Of a stretch of 53,917 bases of DNA, positions 12,724 through 52,450 are shown one piece after another (positions within the stretch are counted from its first letter, which is position 1; every line of letters starts with the position of its first letter). Made by a program: the position numbers and the translations under genes. Under the pieces are notes generated by a model. That model was not told where the DNA came from, did no database searches, and saw only the letters and a list, made by a program, of their open reading frames with translations. The DNA lies in contig CALVJP010000068.1 of assembly GCA_944332215.1 (NCBI GenBank), positions 1 through 53,917 of the forward strand, given 5' to 3'. This stretch comes from an uncultured Bacilli bacterium (GTDB taxonomy: Bacteria; Bacillota_I; Bacilli_A; RF39; UBA660).

Positions 12724-14082
12724 CTATTTTTGTTTAGCCTTTTTAAAATAAACAATATAATAACCAGCTATGGCCACTGCCACTAAACCAAGACCTATAA
12801 GGACAATGCGCAGTGACATCTCGGCGGCTGTTTTTGGAACATTGACCTTTTCTGGCGTATAATTAACTTCGACTTCATTAGTTGGCACTGTGGTATCATC
12901 AGTTGTGATTTCAGCTGTATTTGGAATTATATAAGTATCCCCTTCTTGATAAGCTGACATATCATAACCTTTTTTTGTATGAACTGTGATGTTAAATTTA
13001 TAAGTATGTCCGTAAAAATCTTTATCATCTAAATCTTTAGCCGTTAAAGTAATTTCATTTTCTTCAAGTTGATACTCAAATAAATCTGTTACATCCTCAT
13101 CATTTTCATTAGTAACTGTTACTTTTGATACTTCTAAACAATCTTCCAAAATATCAGTAAATATATATTTTTCTAAATAAATGCCACTATCATCTAAATC
13201 AACATGATGAGATATTTGATAATCAAAATCTTTACCTAATTCTATTTTTTCCGTATTCACGCTTTTAACTGGTGTTTCTGGCTTATATTTATCATAAACG
13301 ACTACATTAAAATTAGTTGTAGGGGCGGATGAAAGGGTTAAAAAAGCCGCATTTTGAGTAGAATCTTGATAATAAATAATTGTTGATCCAAGATTTGTTA
13401 AATTTCTAGTTAAAGTTAAATTATCAGTACCGGCTTTTTCTAAAGCCGTAATTTTAAGTTTATTGGCACTAATGGTATAATTAGCTACTCCTTGGCCACT
13501 TATTTTAAAGTTAGCTAAAACATTATTTGTATCGGTAACTTCTAACTCTTTGCCAACACGTAATTTAAAAGTTTTAGAAGCAAATGAAGGATTTTTTTTA
13601 TGTTCGGCAATTAACCTATTAATTTCGTTTTTTTCAGCTTCCACACTTAATGGAGTCCCCGAAGCATTTGAATACCATTCAATTATGTGACTACTAGTAG
13701 GTAAAATAGCTCGCCAAATTAATTCTTGAGCCGCAGCATAATATTTGGCGGTTTGATGACCTGGATAATGATAGCCATAATAACCAATTAGTTGTAATTC
13801 TTCTTTTAATTCGTTACTAAAGCCGGTAACTGACCAGTCGGTCGTTGAATAATAATCGCTTCTTTTAACCGGCATGCCGGGCTCGATACAATAAACTATT
13901 TGACCATCGGCAATAATCCAAGGTTTAGGATCAATTGAATCATAACTTGTAACTACATGACGAATATATAAACCCGGAATATTACTTTCTGTGACGGTCG
14001 CCGCATTGGCTTTAGCTGGCAGCAGGCCAAAAATTAGGACAACTATAGAAAACAATAAAAAAGTTTTTAAAATATTTCTCAT
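12724..14082 (-). CDS. Surface protein with a thioester (TQXA-type) adhesin domain and a VPKTA-type cell-wall sorting signal
   Basis: The signal peptide ends AKANA. VYCIEPG (thioester Cys) and AAQELIW (Gln motif) are present. The C-terminus is VPKTA plus a hydrophobic stretch plus KKAKQK, the classic tripartite sorting signal with an Ala in the last position. Confidence 0.6.
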   Translation of the reverse strand: MRNILKTFLLFSIVVLIFGLLPAKANAATVTESNIPGLYIRHVVTSYDSIDPKPWIIADGQIVYCIEPGMPVKRSDYYSTTDWSVTGFSNELKEELQLIGYYGYHYPGHQTAKYYAAAQELIWRAILPTSSHIIEWYSNASGTPLSVEAEKNEINRLIAEHKKNPSFASKTFKLRVGKELEVTDTNNVLANFKISGQGVANYTISANKLKITALEKAGTDNLTLTRNLTNLGSTIIYYQDSTQNAAFLTLSSAPTTNFNVVVYDKYKPETPVKSVNTEKIELGKDFDYQISHHVDLDDSGIYLEKYIFTDILEDCLEVSKVTVTNENDEDVTDLFEYQLEENEITLTAKDLDDKDFYGHTYKFNITVHTKKGYDMSAYQEGDTYIIPNTAEITTDDTTVPTNEVEVNYTPEKVNVPKTAAEMSLRIVLIGLGLVAVAIAGYYIVYFKKAKQK

Positions 14083-46100: not shown

Positions 46101-46271
46101 TTAATTAGCCTTTTTATTTTGTTCTATAATAGTACTGCCCTGGGCAGCCTCTGTAGAAATAACCTCGTGCATTTTTTGAAGTCCTTTAATATTGGCTATC
46201 GTTTTTTCATTTTCATGACAAGGCTTACTATAAGGTGAATTTACCTTACCCTTTTTACTATCATTTTTCAT
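46101..46271 (-). CDS. Small hydrophilic hypothetical protein (56 aa)
   Basis: An AAAGGGGA RBS lies 7 nt before the ATG (MKNDSKKGKVNSPYSK...). Its composition is reminiscent of minor spore SASPs, but no family could be assigned. Confidence 0.35.
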   Translation of the reverse strand: MKNDSKKGKVNSPYSKPCHENEKTIANIKGLQKMHEVISTEAAQGSTIIEQNKKAN

Positions 46272-46306
46272 CTTATTGTCCCCTTTCATTAATATTATGG
46301 ACATAA

Positions 46307-46612
46307 TTAAGCAAAATAATACGGTTTAAAATGTTTATGATAGCTTTTTGCGGTATTGTTTTGTTTATCATTAATAACTTCACCATATATTTGGGCCGCA
46401 TCTTCGTAAGTGATTTCAATATTTAAACTAATGATTTCATTATTAATAGCAAAACTTTTACAAACTAAAATATAATCCTTACTATGTTCTACAACGAATA
46501 TCTCTTCTCCCTCATAAAATCCAAGCTCCTGATAAACTTCACGGTCATGGTAAAAAAGCCAAAATTCGGTAATTTGGAATTTAGTATATGGCGGACATTC
46601 AGATAAATACAT
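46307..46612 (-). CDS. Hypothetical protein, weakly FeoA/SH3-like
   Basis: An AAAGGGGTGA RBS precedes the ATG (MYLSECPPYTKFQITEF...). It lies downstream of aspS. Confidence 0.35.
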   Translation of the reverse strand: MYLSECPPYTKFQITEFWLFYHDREVYQELGFYEGEEIFVVEHSKDYILVCKSFAINNEIISLNIEITYEDAAQIYGEVINDKQNNTAKSYHKHFKPYYFA

Positions 46613-46653
46613 CGATTTCACCCCTTTATATGAAAAAAAGCTCAATTGAACTT

Positions 46654-48402
46654 TTACCTTATTTTAATATGTACTTCCCTTAATTGCTGCTCACTAACTT
46701 CACTTGGCGAGCCCATCATATTATCTTGACCACTGACATTTGGTGGGAAAGCCTGTACTTCTCTTAAGTTGGGCTCATCTCTTAACAACATGATAATGCG
46801 ATCAAGACCAGGTGCCATCCCGGCATGAGGTGGGACACCGTATTGAAATGCAGTATAAAGTGACTGAAATTTATCTTTGACAATCTCTTCAGTATAACCT
46901 ACCAAATTAAAGCCTTTCATTAAAAGGTTAAGATCGTGATTACGAACAGCACCTGAGGACATTTCAAAGCCATTGCAAACAAAATCAAATTGATAAGCTA
47001 AAATATCTTCAATTGGTCCATCGTAAGCTTTGGCTCCGCCTTGAGGCATACTGAATGGATTATGGCCAAAATCGTATTTGCCCTCTTCTTCATTATATTC
47101 AAATAATGGCATATCATTGATAATGCAAAATTCATAAACGTTAGGATCAATTAAATCTAAACGTTTACCTAACTCTGTACGAATTAAACCGGCCTGTTTA
47201 GAGGCAATATCAGGTTTCCTATCAGCAATAAAGAAAACAACCCCGTTAGGCTTTAATGCACAAGTATCGATTAAGTCTTTGCGCTCAGCTTCTGTTAAGA
47301 ATTTATCAATGGGCCCTTTGAAAGTGCCATCTTCGAGGTATGAAAGATAACCAATACCAGGCATACCAATAGTTTTAGCATAATCAACAACTTCATTAAA
47401 CCAAGAATTTGATTTGCCAGCTAAATTATCTACTTTAATAGCTCTGACCGTCGTTCCTTTAAAAGGTTTAAACTCACTTTCTTTAAAAATAGCACTAACA
47501 TCTGTGATGATTAATGGATTTCGAAGATCAGGTTTATCGGTACCATATTTTAACATAGCTTCTTTATAAGCTATCCGCTTAAATGGTTTTGGGGAAACTT
47601 TTCTATCGGAAAAATGCGTAAATAAATCATAGAAAATCTCTTCGCCAATGTTATAAACATCCTCTTCTTCTACAAATGCCATTTCAAAATCTAATTGATA
47701 GAATTCTAAAGTACGATCAGCTCGGCAATCCTCATCGCGAAAACAAGGAGCGATTTGATAATATCGATCAAAACCACCAACCATTAGTAATTCTTTGAAA
47801 ATTTGTGGGGCTTGAGGGAGGGCATAAAATTTACCATGAAATTTACGGGAAGGAACGATAAAATCACGAGCTCCCTCTGGGGAAGAAGCTGTAAGTATTG
47901 GGGTTTGAATTTCTGTAAAATGAAGATCATCCATTTTGTTTCTCAAAAATTTTAAAATTTCGCTTCTAAACTTAATATTATCATGTACTTTTTTATTACG
48001 CATATCTAAATAACGATATTTAAGCCTAACCTCTTCATTCACACTAGTTGAAGTGATAATTTCAAAAGGTAATTCATTTTTGGCTTTACCAAGGACTTCA
48101 ATAGCTTCAATTAAAATTTCAATAGTCCCTGTCAAAATTTTAGAATTATATGTTTCTTCATCACGTTTACGAATAATACCCTCTAAAGTTACTGTCGATT
48201 CTCTTGTTAAGCCATCAAAAATGTGATCATCATTACTGACAACTTGAATAATGCCCGTTTCATCACGAACATCTAGGAAAATAACCCCGCCGTGATCACG
48301 AATATTTTCCACCCAGCCGGCGACTTTAACGGTTTTGCCTAAATCAGCTTCAGTCAGTTTTCCACAATAATGATTACGATATTTATTATTCACTTTTATC
48401 AC
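46654..48402 (-). CDS. aspS: Aspartyl-tRNA synthetase (bacterial type; probably non-discriminating given its context)
   Basis: The OB-fold N-terminus reads VKVAGWVENIRDHGGVIFLDVRDETGIIQVV. Motif 2 is CFRDEDCRADR and motif 3 is GLDRIIMLL. The start overlaps the gatB stop by 4 nt. Confidence 0.9.
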   Translation of the reverse strand: MIKVNNKYRNHYCGKLTEADLGKTVKVAGWVENIRDHGGVIFLDVRDETGIIQVVSNDDHIFDGLTRESTVTLEGIIRKRDEETYNSKILTGTIEILIEAIEVLGKAKNELPFEIITSTSVNEEVRLKYRYLDMRNKKVHDNIKFRSEILKFLRNKMDDLHFTEIQTPILTASSPEGARDFIVPSRKFHGKFYALPQAPQIFKELLMVGGFDRYYQIAPCFRDEDCRADRTLEFYQLDFEMAFVEEEDVYNIGEEIFYDLFTHFSDRKVSPKPFKRIAYKEAMLKYGTDKPDLRNPLIITDVSAIFKESEFKPFKGTTVRAIKVDNLAGKSNSWFNEVVDYAKTIGMPGIGYLSYLEDGTFKGPIDKFLTEAERKDLIDTCALKPNGVVFFIADRKPDIASKQAGLIRTELGKRLDLIDPNVYEFCIINDMPLFEYNEEEGKYDFGHNPFSMPQGGAKAYDGPIEDILAYQFDFVCNGFEMSSGAVRNHDLNLLMKGFNLVGYTEEIVKDKFQSLYTAFQYGVPPHAGMAPGLDRIIMLLRDEPNLREVQAFPPNVSGQDNMMGSPSEVSEQQLREVHIKIR

Positions 48403-49856
48403 CTCTTTGCTATTTCTTCAGCCATAGTACTTCTAGCTATGGTTGGATTAGCTGTACCACGGGTTTTTTTCATAATTTGCCCAACTAAGAAATCAACCAC
48501 GTTGGTACGTCCTTTTTTATATTGCTCAATAACATCAGGATGTTCATCTAAAACTTCGTTAGCGATTCTCACGATTTCACCGGTATCGCTCATTTGGATC
48601 AGGCCTTTTTCTTTCACCACTTCTTTTGGTGTTTGGCCACTAGTTAAACAGTGGGCAAAAACTTCTTTAGCCTGTTTTGAAGAAATTTCTTTAGTATCAA
48701 CCAAATTAATTAATTCAACTAACATGGCTGGGGTTAAAGCGATTTCTTTAATGGTAAGATCTAACTTGTTTAAACTGCCTAGTAAATTAGTGGTGACCCA
48801 ATTAGAAGCACTTTTAGGATCAGCTCCTAAGCTAATTGTTTCCTCATAAAAATCGGCTACGGCTTTTTCTTTTACTAAAATAGTAGCATCATAGTTTGTA
48901 ATTCCATATTCATTGATATAAGTTTCTTTGCGCTCACTAGCTAAAGCTGGAATTTCTTGCCGAATTTGTTCAAGCCAATTTTTATCTAATTTAATTTTTG
49001 GAATATTAGGCTCGACAAAGTATTTATAATCAATAGCATCGACTTTACTACGCATGAAAATAGTCGTGCCGGACTCTTCATCCCATCTTCTGGTATGTTG
49101 CTGCATTTCGGCATATTGACCGTTTTCTTTAAGGTCTGTTTGTCTTTCAATTTCATAATTGATAGCATCACGAACGCCCCCAAAAGAATTGACATTTTTA
49201 ATTTCGATTTTTGTTCCCCAATTAGCTGGATTGGTTTCATCTTGATTACTATCCATAATGGAAACATTAACGTCACACCTAATTTGACCTTTTTTACTAT
49301 CGGCCTCACTAATACCGGCGTACTGATATATTGAGCGCATAGTTTCTAAAAAGGCTACGGCTTCGTCAGCTGTATGTAAATCTGGCTCAGTAACTAATTC
49401 TAGTAATGGGACCCCTGCTCGATTATAGTTAATTTTAGAAATTCGGCCATAATGATCGGCTGAAGCAGCATCTTCTTCTAAATGCAAATTATTAATTCTA
49501 ACTTCTTTTTCTTCACCATTAACGTCAAATTTTAGTTTTCCATAAATACCAACGGGAGCCGGCTTTGTCTCTTGGGTAATCTGAAAACCTTTTGGTAAAT
49601 CAGGATAATAATAATTTTTTCTTTCAAAATAAATATATTCAGGCTGCTGGCAATGTAAAATCATACTAGCCATTAAAGCTTTTTTAACAGCTGCCTTATT
49701 GACAACTGGTAAGGTCCCCGGAAAAGCCATATCGACTGGTCTAATATTCGTATTTGGTTTATCAGTATATTCATTAGGAGCCGAAGAAAAAACTTTCGTA
49801 TTTGTTTCACTAATTTCACAGTGCATTTCCAGACCGATTAATACTTTATATTTCAT
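48399..49856 (-). CDS. gatB: Asp/Glu-tRNA amidotransferase subunit B
   Basis: The motifs are IGLEMHCE, LHLEEDA and a C-terminal YqeY-like tail. Confidence 0.92.
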   Translation of the reverse strand: MKYKVLIGLEMHCEISETNTKVFSSAPNEYTDKPNTNIRPVDMAFPGTLPVVNKAAVKKALMASMILHCQQPEYIYFERKNYYYPDLPKGFQITQETKPAPVGIYGKLKFDVNGEEKEVRINNLHLEEDAASADHYGRISKINYNRAGVPLLELVTEPDLHTADEAVAFLETMRSIYQYAGISEADSKKGQIRCDVNVSIMDSNQDETNPANWGTKIEIKNVNSFGGVRDAINYEIERQTDLKENGQYAEMQQHTRRWDEESGTTIFMRSKVDAIDYKYFVEPNIPKIKLDKNWLEQIRQEIPALASERKETYINEYGITNYDATILVKEKAVADFYEETISLGADPKSASNWVTTNLLGSLNKLDLTIKEIALTPAMLVELINLVDTKEISSKQAKEVFAHCLTSGQTPKEVVKEKGLIQMSDTGEIVRIANEVLDEHPDVIEQYKKGRTNVVDFLVGQIMKKTRGTANPTIARSTMAEEIAKR

Positions 49857-51313
49857 TATTTGACCTCCCCTACGGTTTGACCTTTATAATCCATAGATGC
49901 TTCTAAAGCATAAGCAATATTCAAAACATTAATATCGTCATAACATTTACCGGTGATATTCAAAGCCACGGGTAAATTACTTATAAAGCCATCGGGAATG
50001 GTAATGGAAGGAAAGCCACCAAAATTACCAATTTGCAAATGATCTTCTAAGGCCTGGGTACGTTTATCAAGCATATCCGCGGAGCCTGCTAATGGTTTAG
50101 CAGTTCCACTACCAACAGGTAAAATGACAGCGTCATACGTTTTAAATAATTCGTTCCACTTATCTACCAATAAACGCCTAACTCTTTGGGCATTATGGAA
50201 ATAACGTTCTTTATTTTGAGCTTGCAAAACATAAGAGCCGATTACGAAACGACGTTTAATTAATGGGGAAAAACCTTTAGTACGATAGTTTTTCATCTCT
50301 TCATCATATTTTTCTCCGTCAGCACGTGGTCCAAAGATAAAACCAGTTAAATTGGACATATTTGACGTAGCTTCGGCACAAGAAATAACAACATAAACTG
50401 AGGGCATAGCTTCTAATAATTTATGATCAACAGAAACTTCTTCAATTTTCATTCCCAGATCACGACATTTTTGAAGTACTTGCCTAAAGTTAGCTAGGTG
50501 TTCTTTTAATTCGGGCTTAGCATCAGGATACATGGCAATATCACATATTTCTTTAATATAACAAAGTTTTTTACCTTTGACATCAGCTGATAAAGATTGA
50601 TATAAATTAATGTCCTTAGAATCCCAACTAGTCATATCGTTATGATCCTGACCTTTCATGGCATCGGTCACTAAAGCGGCATCTTCTACACTACGAGCTA
50701 AAACCCCACAATGGTCTAAACTGCTAGCAAAAGGAAATAAACCATACCTAGAAATCATTCCATAGGTTGGCTTATATCCAACAATTCCGCAATAAGCTGC
50801 TGGTTTTCTGATAGAATCACCCGTGTCACTACCAGTGGCATAAGGATAAACTCCAGCTGCTACAGCAGCGGCACTGCCGGCTGATGAGCCTGCACACATT
50901 CTGGAAGTATCCCAAGGGTTTTTGACGATTCCAGTATGACCAGTAGTTCCCGTACCACCCATTCCAAATTCATCTAAAACGGTTTTATTAACCATAACCG
51001 CTCCATGTTTTTGAAGATTACTAATCGCCGTAGCGGTGAAAAATGGCACATAGTCCTTTAAAGTATTGGAAGAGCCTGTACTAAGCACACCTTTCGTACT
51101 ATAATTATCTTTAACACCATAAGGAATACCTGATAAAATGTCATCGGTAACTTCACAAGGTTTAGCTTCGTCTAAAATTGTCACAAAGGCATTACATTTA
51201 TCTTGAAGTTGATGTGATTTTTCAAGTGATTCTTTGATCAGATCAGCACTTGTCACGTTTCCGTTTTTTAAAGCCTCATGAATTTCTTTTAAGCTTTTAT
51301 TCATATATTCCAT
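49856..51313 (-). CDS. gatA: Asp/Glu-tRNA amidotransferase subunit A
   Basis: The amidase signature is GSSAGSAAAVAAG...GSDTGDSIRKPA. The ATG at 51313 lies 1 nt after the gatC stop. Confidence 0.92.
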   Translation of the reverse strand: MEYMNKSLKEIHEALKNGNVTSADLIKESLEKSHQLQDKCNAFVTILDEAKPCEVTDDILSGIPYGVKDNYSTKGVLSTGSSNTLKDYVPFFTATAISNLQKHGAVMVNKTVLDEFGMGGTGTTGHTGIVKNPWDTSRMCAGSSAGSAAAVAAGVYPYATGSDTGDSIRKPAAYCGIVGYKPTYGMISRYGLFPFASSLDHCGVLARSVEDAALVTDAMKGQDHNDMTSWDSKDINLYQSLSADVKGKKLCYIKEICDIAMYPDAKPELKEHLANFRQVLQKCRDLGMKIEEVSVDHKLLEAMPSVYVVISCAEATSNMSNLTGFIFGPRADGEKYDEEMKNYRTKGFSPLIKRRFVIGSYVLQAQNKERYFHNAQRVRRLLVDKWNELFKTYDAVILPVGSGTAKPLAGSADMLDKRTQALEDHLQIGNFGGFPSITIPDGFISNLPVALNITGKCYDDINVLNIAYALEASMDYKGQTVGEVK

Positions 51314-51314
51314 A

Positions 51315-51617
51315 TTATCCCACCATCCTTGGTACTTCAACTTCCTGACCGTCGTTCTCATCACAATTGGCTAGTAGCTCATCGATTGGTATTGACTCTT
51401 CAACCACATCTTCGCGAAAATCACAGATAAAATTATCCAAACAATGAGTCATTGGCTCGACGCTTTCAATGTTTGGAATTTCATTAATTAAATCAATATT
51501 GGTATCGATGATCGCAAATTCATCTAAAACCATTTGATTTTCTTCGGGTGTTAATCCGATTAATAGTTTATCGGCATAATCGTCAACCATTTCTTTAGTA
51601 AATTTTACATTTGCCAT
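51315..51617 (-). CDS. gatC: Asp/Glu-tRNA amidotransferase subunit C
   Basis: A 100-aa acidic protein directly upstream of gatA, with an AAGGAGGA RBS. Confidence 0.85.
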   Translation of the reverse strand: MANVKFTKEMVDDYADKLLIGLTPEENQMVLDEFAIIDTNIDLINEIPNIESVEPMTHCLDNFICDFREDVVEESIPIDELLANCDENDGQEVEVPRMVG

Positions 51618-51634: not shown

Positions 51635-51677
51635 CAAAAAATAGGATAGTAGGAACTATGACCTACGACCCTACTAT
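51635..51677 (-). terminator. Hairpin plus T6 between the tRNA-Asn array and gatC. It looks derived from a decayed tRNA-Asn 3' half.
   Basis: The minus strand reads ATAGTAGG-GTCGTAGGTCATAGTT-CCTACTAT followed by CCTATTTTTT. GGGTCGTAGGT and TCCTAC match the T-arm region of the adjacent tRNA-Asn genes. Confidence 0.4.
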
Positions 51678-51709
51678 ATTAAATGGGCTATCCCATATTA
51701 ATGTTAAAG

Positions 51710-51785
51710 TGGCGCCTGATGTAGGACTCGAACCTACGACCCAACGGTTAACAGCCGTTTGCTCTACCGACTGAGCTAATCAGGC
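51710..51785 (-). tRNA. tRNA-Asn (GTT), copy 1, CCA encoded
   Basis: GCCTGAT TA GCTC AGTCGGTA GAGC A AACGG CTGTTAA CCGTT GGGTC GTAGG TTCGAGT CCTAC ATCAGGC G CCA. Confidence 0.93.
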
Positions 51786-51790
51786 ATAAG

Positions 51791-51866
51791 TGGCGCTCAA
51801 TGTAGGACTCGAACCTACGACCCAACGGTTAACAGCCGTTTGCTCTACCGACTGAGCTAATTGAGC
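51791..51866 (-). tRNA. tRNA-Asn (GTT), copy 2, CCA encoded
   Basis: The body is the same as copy 1, with acceptor stem GCTCAAT/ATTGAGC. A 5-nt spacer (CTTAT on the minus strand) separates the copies. Confidence 0.93.
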
Positions 51867-51871
51867 ATAAG

Positions 51872-51947
51872 TGGCGCCTAATGTAGGACTCGAACCTACG
51901 ACCCAACGGTTAACAGCCGTTTGCTCTACCAACTGAGCTAATTAGGC
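51872..51947 (-). tRNA. tRNA-Asn (GTT), copy 3, CCA encoded
   Basis: The acceptor stem is GCCTAAT/ATTAGGC and the D-loop is AGTTGG. The 5' end lies 8 nt after the T-box terminator T5 run. Confidence 0.93.
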
Positions 51948-52209
51948 AAATAAATAAAAAACAGCCATAACATCCTTATTATAAGGACGAATAACTGTAA
52001 TTCGCGGTACCACCTTATTTGTCATATACATGACCTCTTTATAGTTTCCTTTAAGAAACGTATAATATGGTAACGGATTACAGCCGACTTATCTTACTAT
52101 TATTTCAGATAAATTACTCCGTGGTGTTTTTCATATTAGATTTATTACTAGCTCTCATCATCCTAGCTTGCTTTAAATAAACGCTTAATATTACTCTTCC
52201 ACTTCTCAG
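51948..52209 (-). promoter_or_regulatory. T-box riboswitch leader, specifier most likely AAC (Asn)
   Basis: All elements were read on the minus strand. The K-turn/base is ACTGAGAAGTGG...CCACGGAGT. The AGTA box is AAGAGTA. The 3' side of the specifier loop is GAAA-AAC-A (AAC at 52125-52127) immediately before helix CCAC. The AG bay is AAAGCAAG. The distal loop GATGATGAGAG is closed by CTAG/CTAG. The F-box is CCGTTA. Stem III is GTCAT-GTAT-ATGAC. The T-box is AATAAGGTGGTACCGCGAAT (52002-52015 core). The antiterminator is TAAGG/UGGUACC bulge/GCGAAT-loop-ATTCGT/CCTTA. The competing terminator is CGTCCTTAT-A-ATAAGGATG, extended and followed by T5ATTT. Confidence 0.88.
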
Positions 52210-52238
52210 TATTTATATCAATTATTTTAAAACAATAT

Positions 52239-52315
52239 TTGGTAGTCCGTACGGGATTTGAACCCGTGAGTGCATGCGTGAAAGGCATGTGTGTTAAACC
52301 GCTTCACCAACGGAC
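52239..52315 (-). tRNA. tRNA-Glu (TTC), CCA encoded
   Basis: GGTCCGT..CATGC CTTTCAC GCATG..ACGGG TTCAAAT CCCGT ACGGACT A CCA. Confidence 0.9.
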
Positions 52316-52324
52316 CAAATAAAA

Positions 52325-52401
<77 letters not shown>

Positions 52402-52421: not shown

Positions 52422-52450
52422 AGTATACCTTATTTTATGAATTTTGACAA
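52422..52450 (-). promoter_or_regulatory. Sigma-A promoter of the tRNA-Ile/tRNA-Glu transcription unit
   Basis: The minus strand reads TTGTCA - 17 nt - TATACT, about 20 nt upstream of the tRNA-Ile 5' end. Confidence 0.6.

Follow-up and report, generated by a model that had tools for sequence, protein, structure and literature searches.

Directly upstream of three genes for tRNA-Asn, a DNA stretch from an uncultured Bacilli bacterium (assembly GCA_944332215.1, contig CALVJP010000068.1) encodes a T-box leader specific for asparagine, and this leader probably gates the transcription of those genes by terminating it conditionally part-way through a tRNA operon. The whole stretch of 53,917 nucleotides (nt) that was analyzed is referred to here as the window. 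The order of the unit on the minus strand of the window is promoter, tRNA-Ile, tRNA-Glu, T-box, three tRNA-Asn, a hairpin with a U-run, and then gatC-gatA-gatB-aspS, which places the genes for the presumed ligand of the T-box between its terminator and the first enzyme gene.

The T-box leader and its specificity

The Rfam T-box family RF00230 matches the minus strand at 52216-51980 with 136.3 bits, compared with a gathering score of 93 (E 2.8e-30), and the family model is covered in full, from position 1 to 219 of 219. The initial annotation, made from the letters of the sequence, had read a complete set of canonical T-box motifs on this strand, and the full-length match bears it out, with the motifs at the following positions.

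51980-52216, minus strand: Asn-specific T-box leader with Stem I, Stem II, Stem IIA/B, Stem III and antiterminator (RF00230, 136.3 bits)
52195-52192, minus strand: AGTA box (read from the sequence and the Rfam alignment)
52132-52129 (GAAA), 52128-52126 (AAC) and 52125 (A), minus strand: specifier loop (sequence and Rfam alignment)
52126-52128, minus strand: specifier codon AAC in the loop GAAA-AAC-A (motif GAA-N-AAC-A invariant in relatives)
52124-52121, minus strand: CCAC, adjoining the specifier loop and pairing with GUGG
52076-52071, minus strand: F-box CCGTTA
52034-52021, minus strand: Stem III
52003-52014, minus strand: T-box sequence GGTGGTACCGCG (equal to GGUGGUACCGCG; sequence and Rfam alignment)

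The specifier AAC is complementary to the anticodon GUU of tRNA-Asn, and the T-box bulge UGGU (52012-52009) lies opposite the G73-CCA end of tRNA-Asn, with a G-U wobble at the variable position (N). Stem I has a K-turn at its base and a specifier codon followed by a purine beside the closing helix, as is diagnostic of a T-box. The region expected to form the distal platform of Stem I (AG bay and distal loop) is placed with high posterior probability in the RF00230 alignment, albeit with a 2-nt deletion in the distal loop. The element is a genuine Asn-specific T-box.

The expression platform

Downstream of Stem III two alternative helices can form, as had been proposed, and both the structure line of the Rfam alignment and the minimum-free-energy fold agree with a foldable antiterminator that competes with a terminator.

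51983-52016, minus strand: antiterminator, AAGG/CCUU plus GCGAA/UUCGU (structure line of the Rfam alignment; recovered de novo by RNAalifold, columns 292-332)
51948-51998, minus strand: terminator, a 16-base-pair (bp) hairpin at 51998-51961 with U6 at 51961-51956, followed by AUUUAUUU up to the tRNA +1

Antiterminator and terminator both use 51998-51983, and they are therefore mutually exclusive. The minimum-free-energy fold of the 93-nt 3' region is the 16-bp terminator, at -23.2 kcal/mol and with z = -2.9 relative to shuffled sequences. The T-run of the terminator ends 8 nt before the first tRNA-Asn, and the terminator stem ends 14 nt before the tRNA-Asn +1. The argument from the short spacing, that a promoter could not be accommodated between terminator and tRNA, stands: the consensus promoter scan of this 14-nt interval found no promoter-like site on the minus strand.

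The surrounding tRNA operon and its transcription start

The T-box is embedded in a series of tRNA genes, on the identity of which ARAGORN and Rfam agree, so that both parts of the check suggested with the initial annotation, a covariance-model search for RF00230 and a tRNA scan of the window, gave the outcome it had anticipated.

52422-52450, minus strand: sigma-70-like promoter TTGTCA-17-TATACT, 5' of tRNA-Ile (10/12 in the promoter scan)
52325-52401, minus strand: tRNA-Ile(GAT) (ARAGORN; Rfam 76.6 bits)
52240-52316, minus strand: tRNA-Glu(TTC), 23 nt upstream of the T-box match (ARAGORN; Rfam 61.6 bits)
51872-51947, minus strand: tRNA-Asn(GTT) copy 3, transcribed first, with acceptor GCCUAAU, G1-C72, G73 and encoded CCA (ARAGORN and Rfam)
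51791-51866, minus strand: tRNA-Asn(GTT) copy 2, acceptor GCUCAAU (ARAGORN and Rfam)
51710-51785, minus strand: tRNA-Asn(GTT) copy 1, acceptor GCCUGAU (ARAGORN and Rfam)

The three tRNA-Asn copies are separated by spacers of 5 nt each, in agreement with the earlier count, and all three encode G73-CCA. The promoter at 52450-52422 is the only good match for the unit in the promoter scan, equivalents of the form TTGTCA-17-TACAAT lie upstream of tRNA-Ile in the related loci L060, L080, L093 and L118, and it is the likely start of the entire unit. In 32 related loci, the T-box likewise has a tRNA-Glu in this position on its 5' side.

Between tRNA-Glu and Stem I lies the sequence TATAAAT (UAUAAAU in the RNA) at 52217-52211, with TG at 52220-52219, which is strongly conserved in those relatives that are built like the window. 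As a candidate promoter for the T-box it was rejected, in that a start about 7 nt downstream would cut off the basal helix of Stem I. This 2-bp helix covaries among relatives (AC-GU, GC-GC, GU-AC) and is therefore present in the RNA, so that a TATAAAT abutting Stem I is unusable as the T-box promoter; the conserved UAUAAAU may be a processing site. The T-box of the window would then be without a promoter of its own and would function as an internal conditional terminator in the tRNA-Ile/tRNA-Glu operon.

The array copies differ from one another at acceptor-stem positions 2-5, with compensating changes that preserve pairing (GCCUAAU, GCUCAAU, GCCUGAU), and the same acceptor variants and orders recur between species, for example GCUCAAU followed by GCCUGAU in 22 loci. 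This pattern suggests that the copies are maintained isodecoders and not homogenized repeats.

Conservation in related genomes and two architectures

The scan of a one-genome-per-species collection asked for a T-box core with a tRNA D-arm 45-75 nt behind it, and gave at least 119 loci. Among the 119 matches listed, at least 79 have one to four tRNA-Asn at 38-60 nt behind the T-box core, and this recurrence of the layout in at least 79 species-level genomes means that the arrangement is not due to chance. A search of related genomes for T-boxes with a tRNA as the next feature had been recommended at the outset, and these loci are its yield. All 79 of the tRNA-Asn loci come from gut or rumen metagenome-assembled genomes (MAGs), labeled mostly as Bacilli, Tenericutes, Erysipelotrichaceae or Candidatus Coprosoma. 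The Rfam gathering score is passed by all 19 of the related loci tested, with 117-144 bits. In an alignment of 74 distinct leaders, compensatory changes are found in 28 of 40 pairs, and RNAalifold recovers Stem I, Stem II, Stem III and the antiterminator. The motif GAA-N-AAC-A is invariant in the 74-77 aligned leaders, and the closing helix of the specifier loop covaries. The T-box bulge reads UGGU in 44 loci; in 34 others it is UGGC, giving a Watson-Crick pair with G73. Every tRNA-Asn of the related loci has G73 and an encoded CCA. Matches from Sphingobacterium, Alloprevotella and proteobacteria were discarded as chance matches or as lacking a T-box, the apparent T-box core of the Sphingobacterium and Alloprevotella matches being the 3' end of a preceding tRNA-Phe.

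The leaders fall into two groups, with GatA identities of 56-83%, and the order T-box then tRNA is kept in both. In the window-like group, tRNA-Ile and tRNA-Glu lie immediately 5', no consensus promoter adjoins the T-box, one to four tRNA-Asn follow, and the terminator is a long hairpin with U6-7, the folded platform segment having -15 to -25 kcal/mol. The short-hairpin group is without the tRNA-Glu and has a near-consensus promoter, TTGACA-17-TATAAT, directly before Stem I; its bulge is mostly UGGC, and it has one or two tRNA-Asn. The T-box in this group is followed by a 6-7 bp hairpin (UUCGUCCC...GGGACGAA) with A-rich or mixed sequence after it, 2-15 nt before the tRNA +1. The same genomes have canonical hairpin and U6-7 terminators directly after the tRNA array. 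The short-hairpin examples L002:155-397, L025, L057, L075 and L112 have T-boxes above the Rfam gathering score.

The spacer and the enzyme genes downstream of the array

In the window, 92 nt separate the tRNA-Asn array from gatC, and this spacer and the genes that follow it contain the features below.

51683-51696, minus strand: small hairpin AUGGGAUAGCCCAU in the spacer (fold; in L066, L086 and L103 a hairpin forms here from other sequences)
51636-51675, minus strand: terminator-like hairpin (51675-51640) with U6 ending at 51636 (fold and scan)
51315-51617, minus strand: gatC, Shine-Dalgarno sequence GGAGG at 51629-51625 (TIGR00135 best family, 38.7 bits, below the cut-off of 47.1)
49856-51364, minus strand: gatA (TIGR00132, 429.7 bits, below the cut-off of 481)
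48399-49856, minus strand: gatB (NF004012, 575 bits, above the cut-off)
46654-48402, minus strand: aspS, bacterial-type AspRS with a GAD domain (NF001750, 714 bits; Pfam PF01336, PF02938, PF00152)
46101-46645: two small open reading frames (ORFs) of 112 and 67 amino acids between aspS and tRNA-Ser, without an NCBIfam match, also called as genes on Logan contig L120

Synteny of gatC holds across more than 60 loci, and the true start of gatA is probably downstream of the listed GTG. Among relatives the downstream gene set is gatCAB-aspS, as in the window, gatCAB-asnS(-aspS), or asnS alone; asnS was not found within the 54-kb window. In L105 an insertion of 1.2 kb with an ORF lies between the tRNA-Asn array and gatC.

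The core of the hairpin at 51636-51675 resembles the T-arm of tRNA-Asn (GGGUCGUAGGUCAUAGUUCCUAC compared with GGGUCGUAGGUUCGAGUCCUAC), and it appears to derive from a fourth tRNA copy, the remains of which have been reused as a hairpin; similar T-arm-like hairpins also occur in L031, L113 and L009. Almost all relatives have a hairpin with T6-8 after the final tRNA-Asn and before the ribosome-binding site of gatC. With just 22-30 nt from tRNA-Asn to gatC (TCTTTTTTTTG...GGAGG), about 12 loci cannot accommodate a separate promoter for gatC. A candidate gatC promoter in the window, TTAATA-17-TATAGT at 51701-51673 (9/12), was set aside, being non-conserved and many relatives having only 22-30 nt at this place, although it may act in the window itself. 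The claim that tRNAs and enzymes form one transcript is thus only partly sustained, in that the short spacers of some relatives favor it, while the hairpin and U6-8 before gatC in almost all relatives make it uncertain. We favor an arrangement in which the tRNAs would be the primary cargo, with the enzymes expressed through partial read-through.

A different Rfam match in the window, to snR85 at 13391-13455, is almost certainly spurious, this being a eukaryotic small nucleolar RNA family matched at 37.1 bits against a threshold of 37.

Double T-boxes and T-boxes in front of tRNA-Phe

In two loci, L015:3340-3914 and L038:7038-7617, the T-box is followed by a single tRNA-Asn, then by a second Asn T-box with its own terminator, and then by gatC. 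Ten loci have a T-box with a UUC specifier directly 5' of tRNA-Phe (L019, L024, L034, L044, L046, L052, L064, L065, L067 and L107). The order T-box(UUC), terminator and tRNA-Phe(GAA) is followed directly by pheS-pheT in L024, L034 and L065, and after an ORF of 167 amino acids in L107. The T-box(UUC) of L019, L024, L034, L046, L065, L067 and L107 scores below the Rfam gathering score (57-88 bits) while matching the full model with E 1e-10 to 1e-18, and that of L052 passes at 105 bits. In L052 and L046 a protein of 372-387 amino acids (MKHLT.EQLKKDLE.RDLSD..QGEH...) replaces pheS-pheT, encoded by ORFs at 286-1449 and 787-1905 nt downstream of the T-box core, and it might be a single-chain PheRS-like enzyme.

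Two of the tRNA-Phe loci are from Paenibacillus. In the cultured Paenibacillus filicis KACC14197 (L044:6608-7201, NZ_JBBPCC010000031.1), a promoter, a T-box(UUC) of 109.5 bits and a terminator precede three tRNA-Phe, and no synthetase gene was found behind these tRNAs; a second, divergent T-box lies at 6346-6085 of the same locus. In a Paenibacillus MAG (L064:6496-6137, minus strand), one tRNA-Phe stands behind a T-box(UUC); the gene beyond it is encoded on the other strand, so the tRNA-Phe is the only same-strand cargo of this T-box. A further locus, L029:4834-5173, from a MAG labeled Ruminococcus, has a T-box of 90.1 bits with an apparent GCU (Ala) specifier, then a 97-nt tRNA-like element (Rfam tRNA 42.5 bits, no ARAGORN call), then alaS.

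Other gene orders and other explanations

Several observations weigh against gating of tRNA-Asn as the function of the arrangement. The first is that the arrangement is not obligatory, the gene order being tRNA-Asn, tRNA-Ile, tRNA-Glu, T-box, gatC in L146 (GatA 83% identical to that of the window), three tRNA-Asn, T-box, gatCAB in L223 (GatA 61% identical), tRNA-Asn, T-box, asnS in L181, and T-box, asnS, three tRNA-Asn in L130 and L174; in L103 (GatA 83% identical) one extra tRNA-Asn is outside the gate, giving copies on both sides of the T-box. Furthermore, if all tRNA-Asn copies of a cell are gated, start-up depends on basal read-through. No clean U-tract follows the T-box hairpin in the short-hairpin group, five loci having an A-tract there. 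A TATAAT in the terminator loop of the window could in principle drive transcription that bypasses the terminator, and the hairpin and U-run before gatC may stop most transcripts before they reach the enzyme genes.

Ungated copies are also seen more widely. A more distantly related set of loci (L121, L161, L185, L229, L226 and L160, with GatA about 56% identical) has one tRNA-Asn immediately 3' of gatB, a further way in which tRNA-Asn and gatCAB are linked. When metagenomes were scanned for tRNA-Asn with C72-G73, most of the copies obtained were ungated and in other contexts, from matches that are not assignable to genomes, and sequences identical to gated copies, likewise not assignable to genomes, were found both with and without a T-box. 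Because the relatives display these other permutations, the tight linkage of tRNA-Asn, T-box and enzymes is general, and gating is, as far as gene order indicates, one stable outcome of it.

One alternative that draws on these permutations is that the T-box was selected for its control of the enzyme operon, and that the tRNA-Asn genes landed in its leader by shuffling, their gating being real but incidental and buffered by leaky termination or by other copies. The linkage of tRNA-Asn, Asn T-box and asnS/gatCAB/aspS in every permutation, with the tRNAs before, between or after, is in keeping with this, as is the locus with tRNA-Asn on both sides of the T-box, and an Asn T-box before an AspRS and GatCAB operon is already known from Clostridium acetobutylicum. 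We nevertheless consider it unlikely that the tRNAs are mere passengers, since T-box-then-tRNA is the order in at least 79 species-level genomes of both groups, across GatA identities of 56-83%, and since the terminator-like hairpin and U-run behind the array make the tRNAs the first and strongest cargo. The separate T-boxes for tRNA and gatCAB in L015 and L038 argue in the same direction, as do the tRNA-Phe that is the sole same-strand cargo in L064 and the three tRNA-Phe without a synthetase gene in L044.

The TATAAT at 51983-51978 raises a second alternative, in which a weak constitutive promoter within the expression platform produces a transcript without the 5' arm of the terminator, such that the T-box affects only transcripts that read through from upstream. 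The hexamer is a perfect -10 element in the terminator loop of the window and also occurs in L018, L027 and L066. It is accompanied by neither a -35 match nor a TG extension, however, and the promoter scan did not report the site. Moreover, it is missing from most window-like relatives, the loops of which are 4-5 nt, and from the short-hairpin group, in which the near-consensus promoters are 5' of the T-box. A promoter at this site is thus very improbable.

The short-hairpin group invites a third explanation, which is that the leader is always co-transcribed with the tRNAs and that its alternative 3' helices alter access of RNase P or other RNases, or the stability of the precursor, mainly in relatives without a U-tract. 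The 6-7 bp hairpin of this group, with A-rich or mixed sequence after it, fits such processing-level control, particularly as the same genomes use canonical hairpin and U6-7 terminators after the array. Against it, the window and the window-like relatives have a textbook terminator, and the pairings predicted for the short-hairpin group between the T-box 3' region and the body of the tRNA are weak and differ from locus to locus. We know of no precedent for T-box control of RNase P cleavage, and we attach hardly any weight to this explanation. Conditional termination upstream of the tRNA-Asn genes is accordingly the reading that is carried forward below.

The G1-C72 pair of the linked tRNA-Asn

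G1 and C72-G73-CCA are shared by all 175 tRNA-Asn of the related loci, among them the three of the window, and tRNA-Asn with C72-G73 are frequent in other contigs of gut metagenomes too. In the comparison by Bailly et al., 49 of 49 bacterial tRNA-Asn had U1-A72, which was identified as the bacterial GatCAB identity pair; with Neisseria meningitidis tRNA-Asn bearing G1-C72, the efficiency of GatCAB was about 100-fold lower (PMC1635274). The pair U1-A72 is likewise present in tRNA-Asn of surveyed genomes that have an extra AspRS (PMC4206432). In many relatives asnS is in the same operon, and these organisms would seem either to depend on AsnRS or to have a GatCAB that is different. The description of gatCAB and aspS as the enzymes that charge the tRNA-Asn therefore survives in part: the genes are present downstream, but charging by their products is unproven, considering the G1-C72 tRNAs and the asnS in the operons of many relatives.

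Proposed mechanism

From the arrangement of the window we infer tRNA binding, charge sensing, read-through, co-transcription of gatCAB-aspS and a physiological benefit, and the course of events would be as follows. RNA polymerase would start 5' of tRNA-Ile and transcribe tRNA-Ile, tRNA-Glu and the T-box leader. Uncharged tRNA-Asn would dock on the leader, through pairing of GUU with AAC and of G73-CCA with UGGU, such that the antiterminator is held and the polymerase continues. Read-through would yield the three tRNA-Asn, to be released by RNase P and 3' processing, and a fraction of the polymerases would cross the second hairpin and U-run into gatCAB-aspS. When tRNA-Asn is aminoacylated, the 16-bp terminator would form and transcription would stop 8 nt short of the first tRNA-Asn. 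The switch would in this way govern the synthesis of its own ligand, which amounts to positive autoregulation, with charging as the negative feedback. The initial annotation had called this a feed-forward loop, a term that does not describe the logic, in which the ligand would regulate itself positively and charging would feed back negatively. Asn makes up 7.1% of residues encoded in the window, the G+C content of which is 30.7%, and a plausible benefit is that the supply of tRNA-Asn would be matched to the high demand for Asn in a genome of 31% G+C.

Relation to known systems

The canonical T-boxes of synthetase genes (tyrS, glyQS, asnS; RF00230) share with the element of the window the fold, the motifs, the pairing of specifier with anticodon and of UGGN with NCCA, and the competing helices, but here the ligand's own RNA gene comes first among the cargo. 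Among known systems, the AspRS and GatCAB operon of Clostridium acetobutylicum comes closest; according to work by Saad and co-workers from 2012 (and, for the NT-box, from 2013), it is reportedly controlled by a tRNA-Asn-dependent T-box. The two have in common an Asn T-box 5' of AspRS and GatCAB genes on the same strand in a low-G+C Firmicute. In the C. acetobutylicum type, however, the T-box lies directly before the first enzyme gene as a single unit, whereas here one to four tRNA-Asn, and then a second hairpin and U-run, come between the T-box terminator and gatC, and the T-box of the window sits inside a tRNA-Ile/tRNA-Glu operon. The gene order also differs, being gatCAB-aspS here and gatCAB-asnS(-aspS) in many relatives, and the tRNA-Asn has G1-C72 in place of the U1-A72 identity pair.

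Operons that mix tRNA and protein genes are exemplified by thrU-tyrU-glyT-thrT-tufB of Escherichia coli, which is without a ligand-sensing leader. The combination of tRNAs with a gene for a translation-related protein, and the release of tRNAs by processing, are shared with this operon; the difference is that here a riboswitch lies between constitutive (Ile, Glu) and conditional (Asn) tRNAs. Riboswitches for thiamine pyrophosphate and S-adenosylmethionine control biosynthesis of their own ligands as OFF switches, in negative feedback. Control over production of the bound molecule is thus not peculiar to the T-box described here, but in this case the bound uncharged ligand would turn its own synthesis ON, a positive feedback that would be tempered only by charging. 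By its sequence, then, the element is a standard transcriptional T-box in fold and mechanism, and what appears to be new is the cargo, namely the genes of its own ligand, the place within a tRNA operon, and the positive autoregulation that would result.

T-box targets are listed in the reviews and surveys consulted as synthetases, biosynthesis genes and transporters. PMC2494555 reports no T-boxes upstream of amidotransferase genes, and tRNA genes as downstream cargo are unmentioned in PMC7778990. The impression that a T-box before its own cognate tRNA genes is undescribed appears to be correct, in that no mention of tRNA genes as T-box cargo was found in the accessible full-text literature or in targeted reading of a review on T-boxes, of TBDB and of an in-silico survey, although the subscription literature could still hold one.

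Implications

A T-box with the gene of its own tRNA ligand as immediate cargo adds RNA genes to the T-box regulon. Cargo of this kind would escape annotation pipelines in which only protein-coding genes are considered as the "downstream gene" of a T-box. The G1-C72 pair of the linked tRNA-Asn raises a question of GatCAB specificity, and the natural T-box-tRNA cassettes could be of use in synthetic biology.

With respect to breadth, the Asn version is found in at least 79 species and the Phe version in others, among them the cultured P. filicis KACC14197, in which the idea is directly testable. More tentatively, and at a strength that falls short of an even chance, T-boxes might constitute an unrecognized class of tRNA-gene regulators by which the charging state of a tRNA determines the size of its pool. 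In a large clade of genome-reduced gut Bacilli, transcription of most or all tRNA-Asn genes, and in other lineages of those for tRNA-Phe, would then require antitermination by the uncharged tRNA, with a sub-class that lacks the U-tract perhaps acting other than by termination, for example on precursor processing. In the usual picture, uncharged tRNA shuts down the synthesis of stable RNA, and charging-dependent induction of a tRNA would be the opposite of this. The arrangement implies that the abundance of bacterial tRNAs may be tunable one species at a time through charging status.

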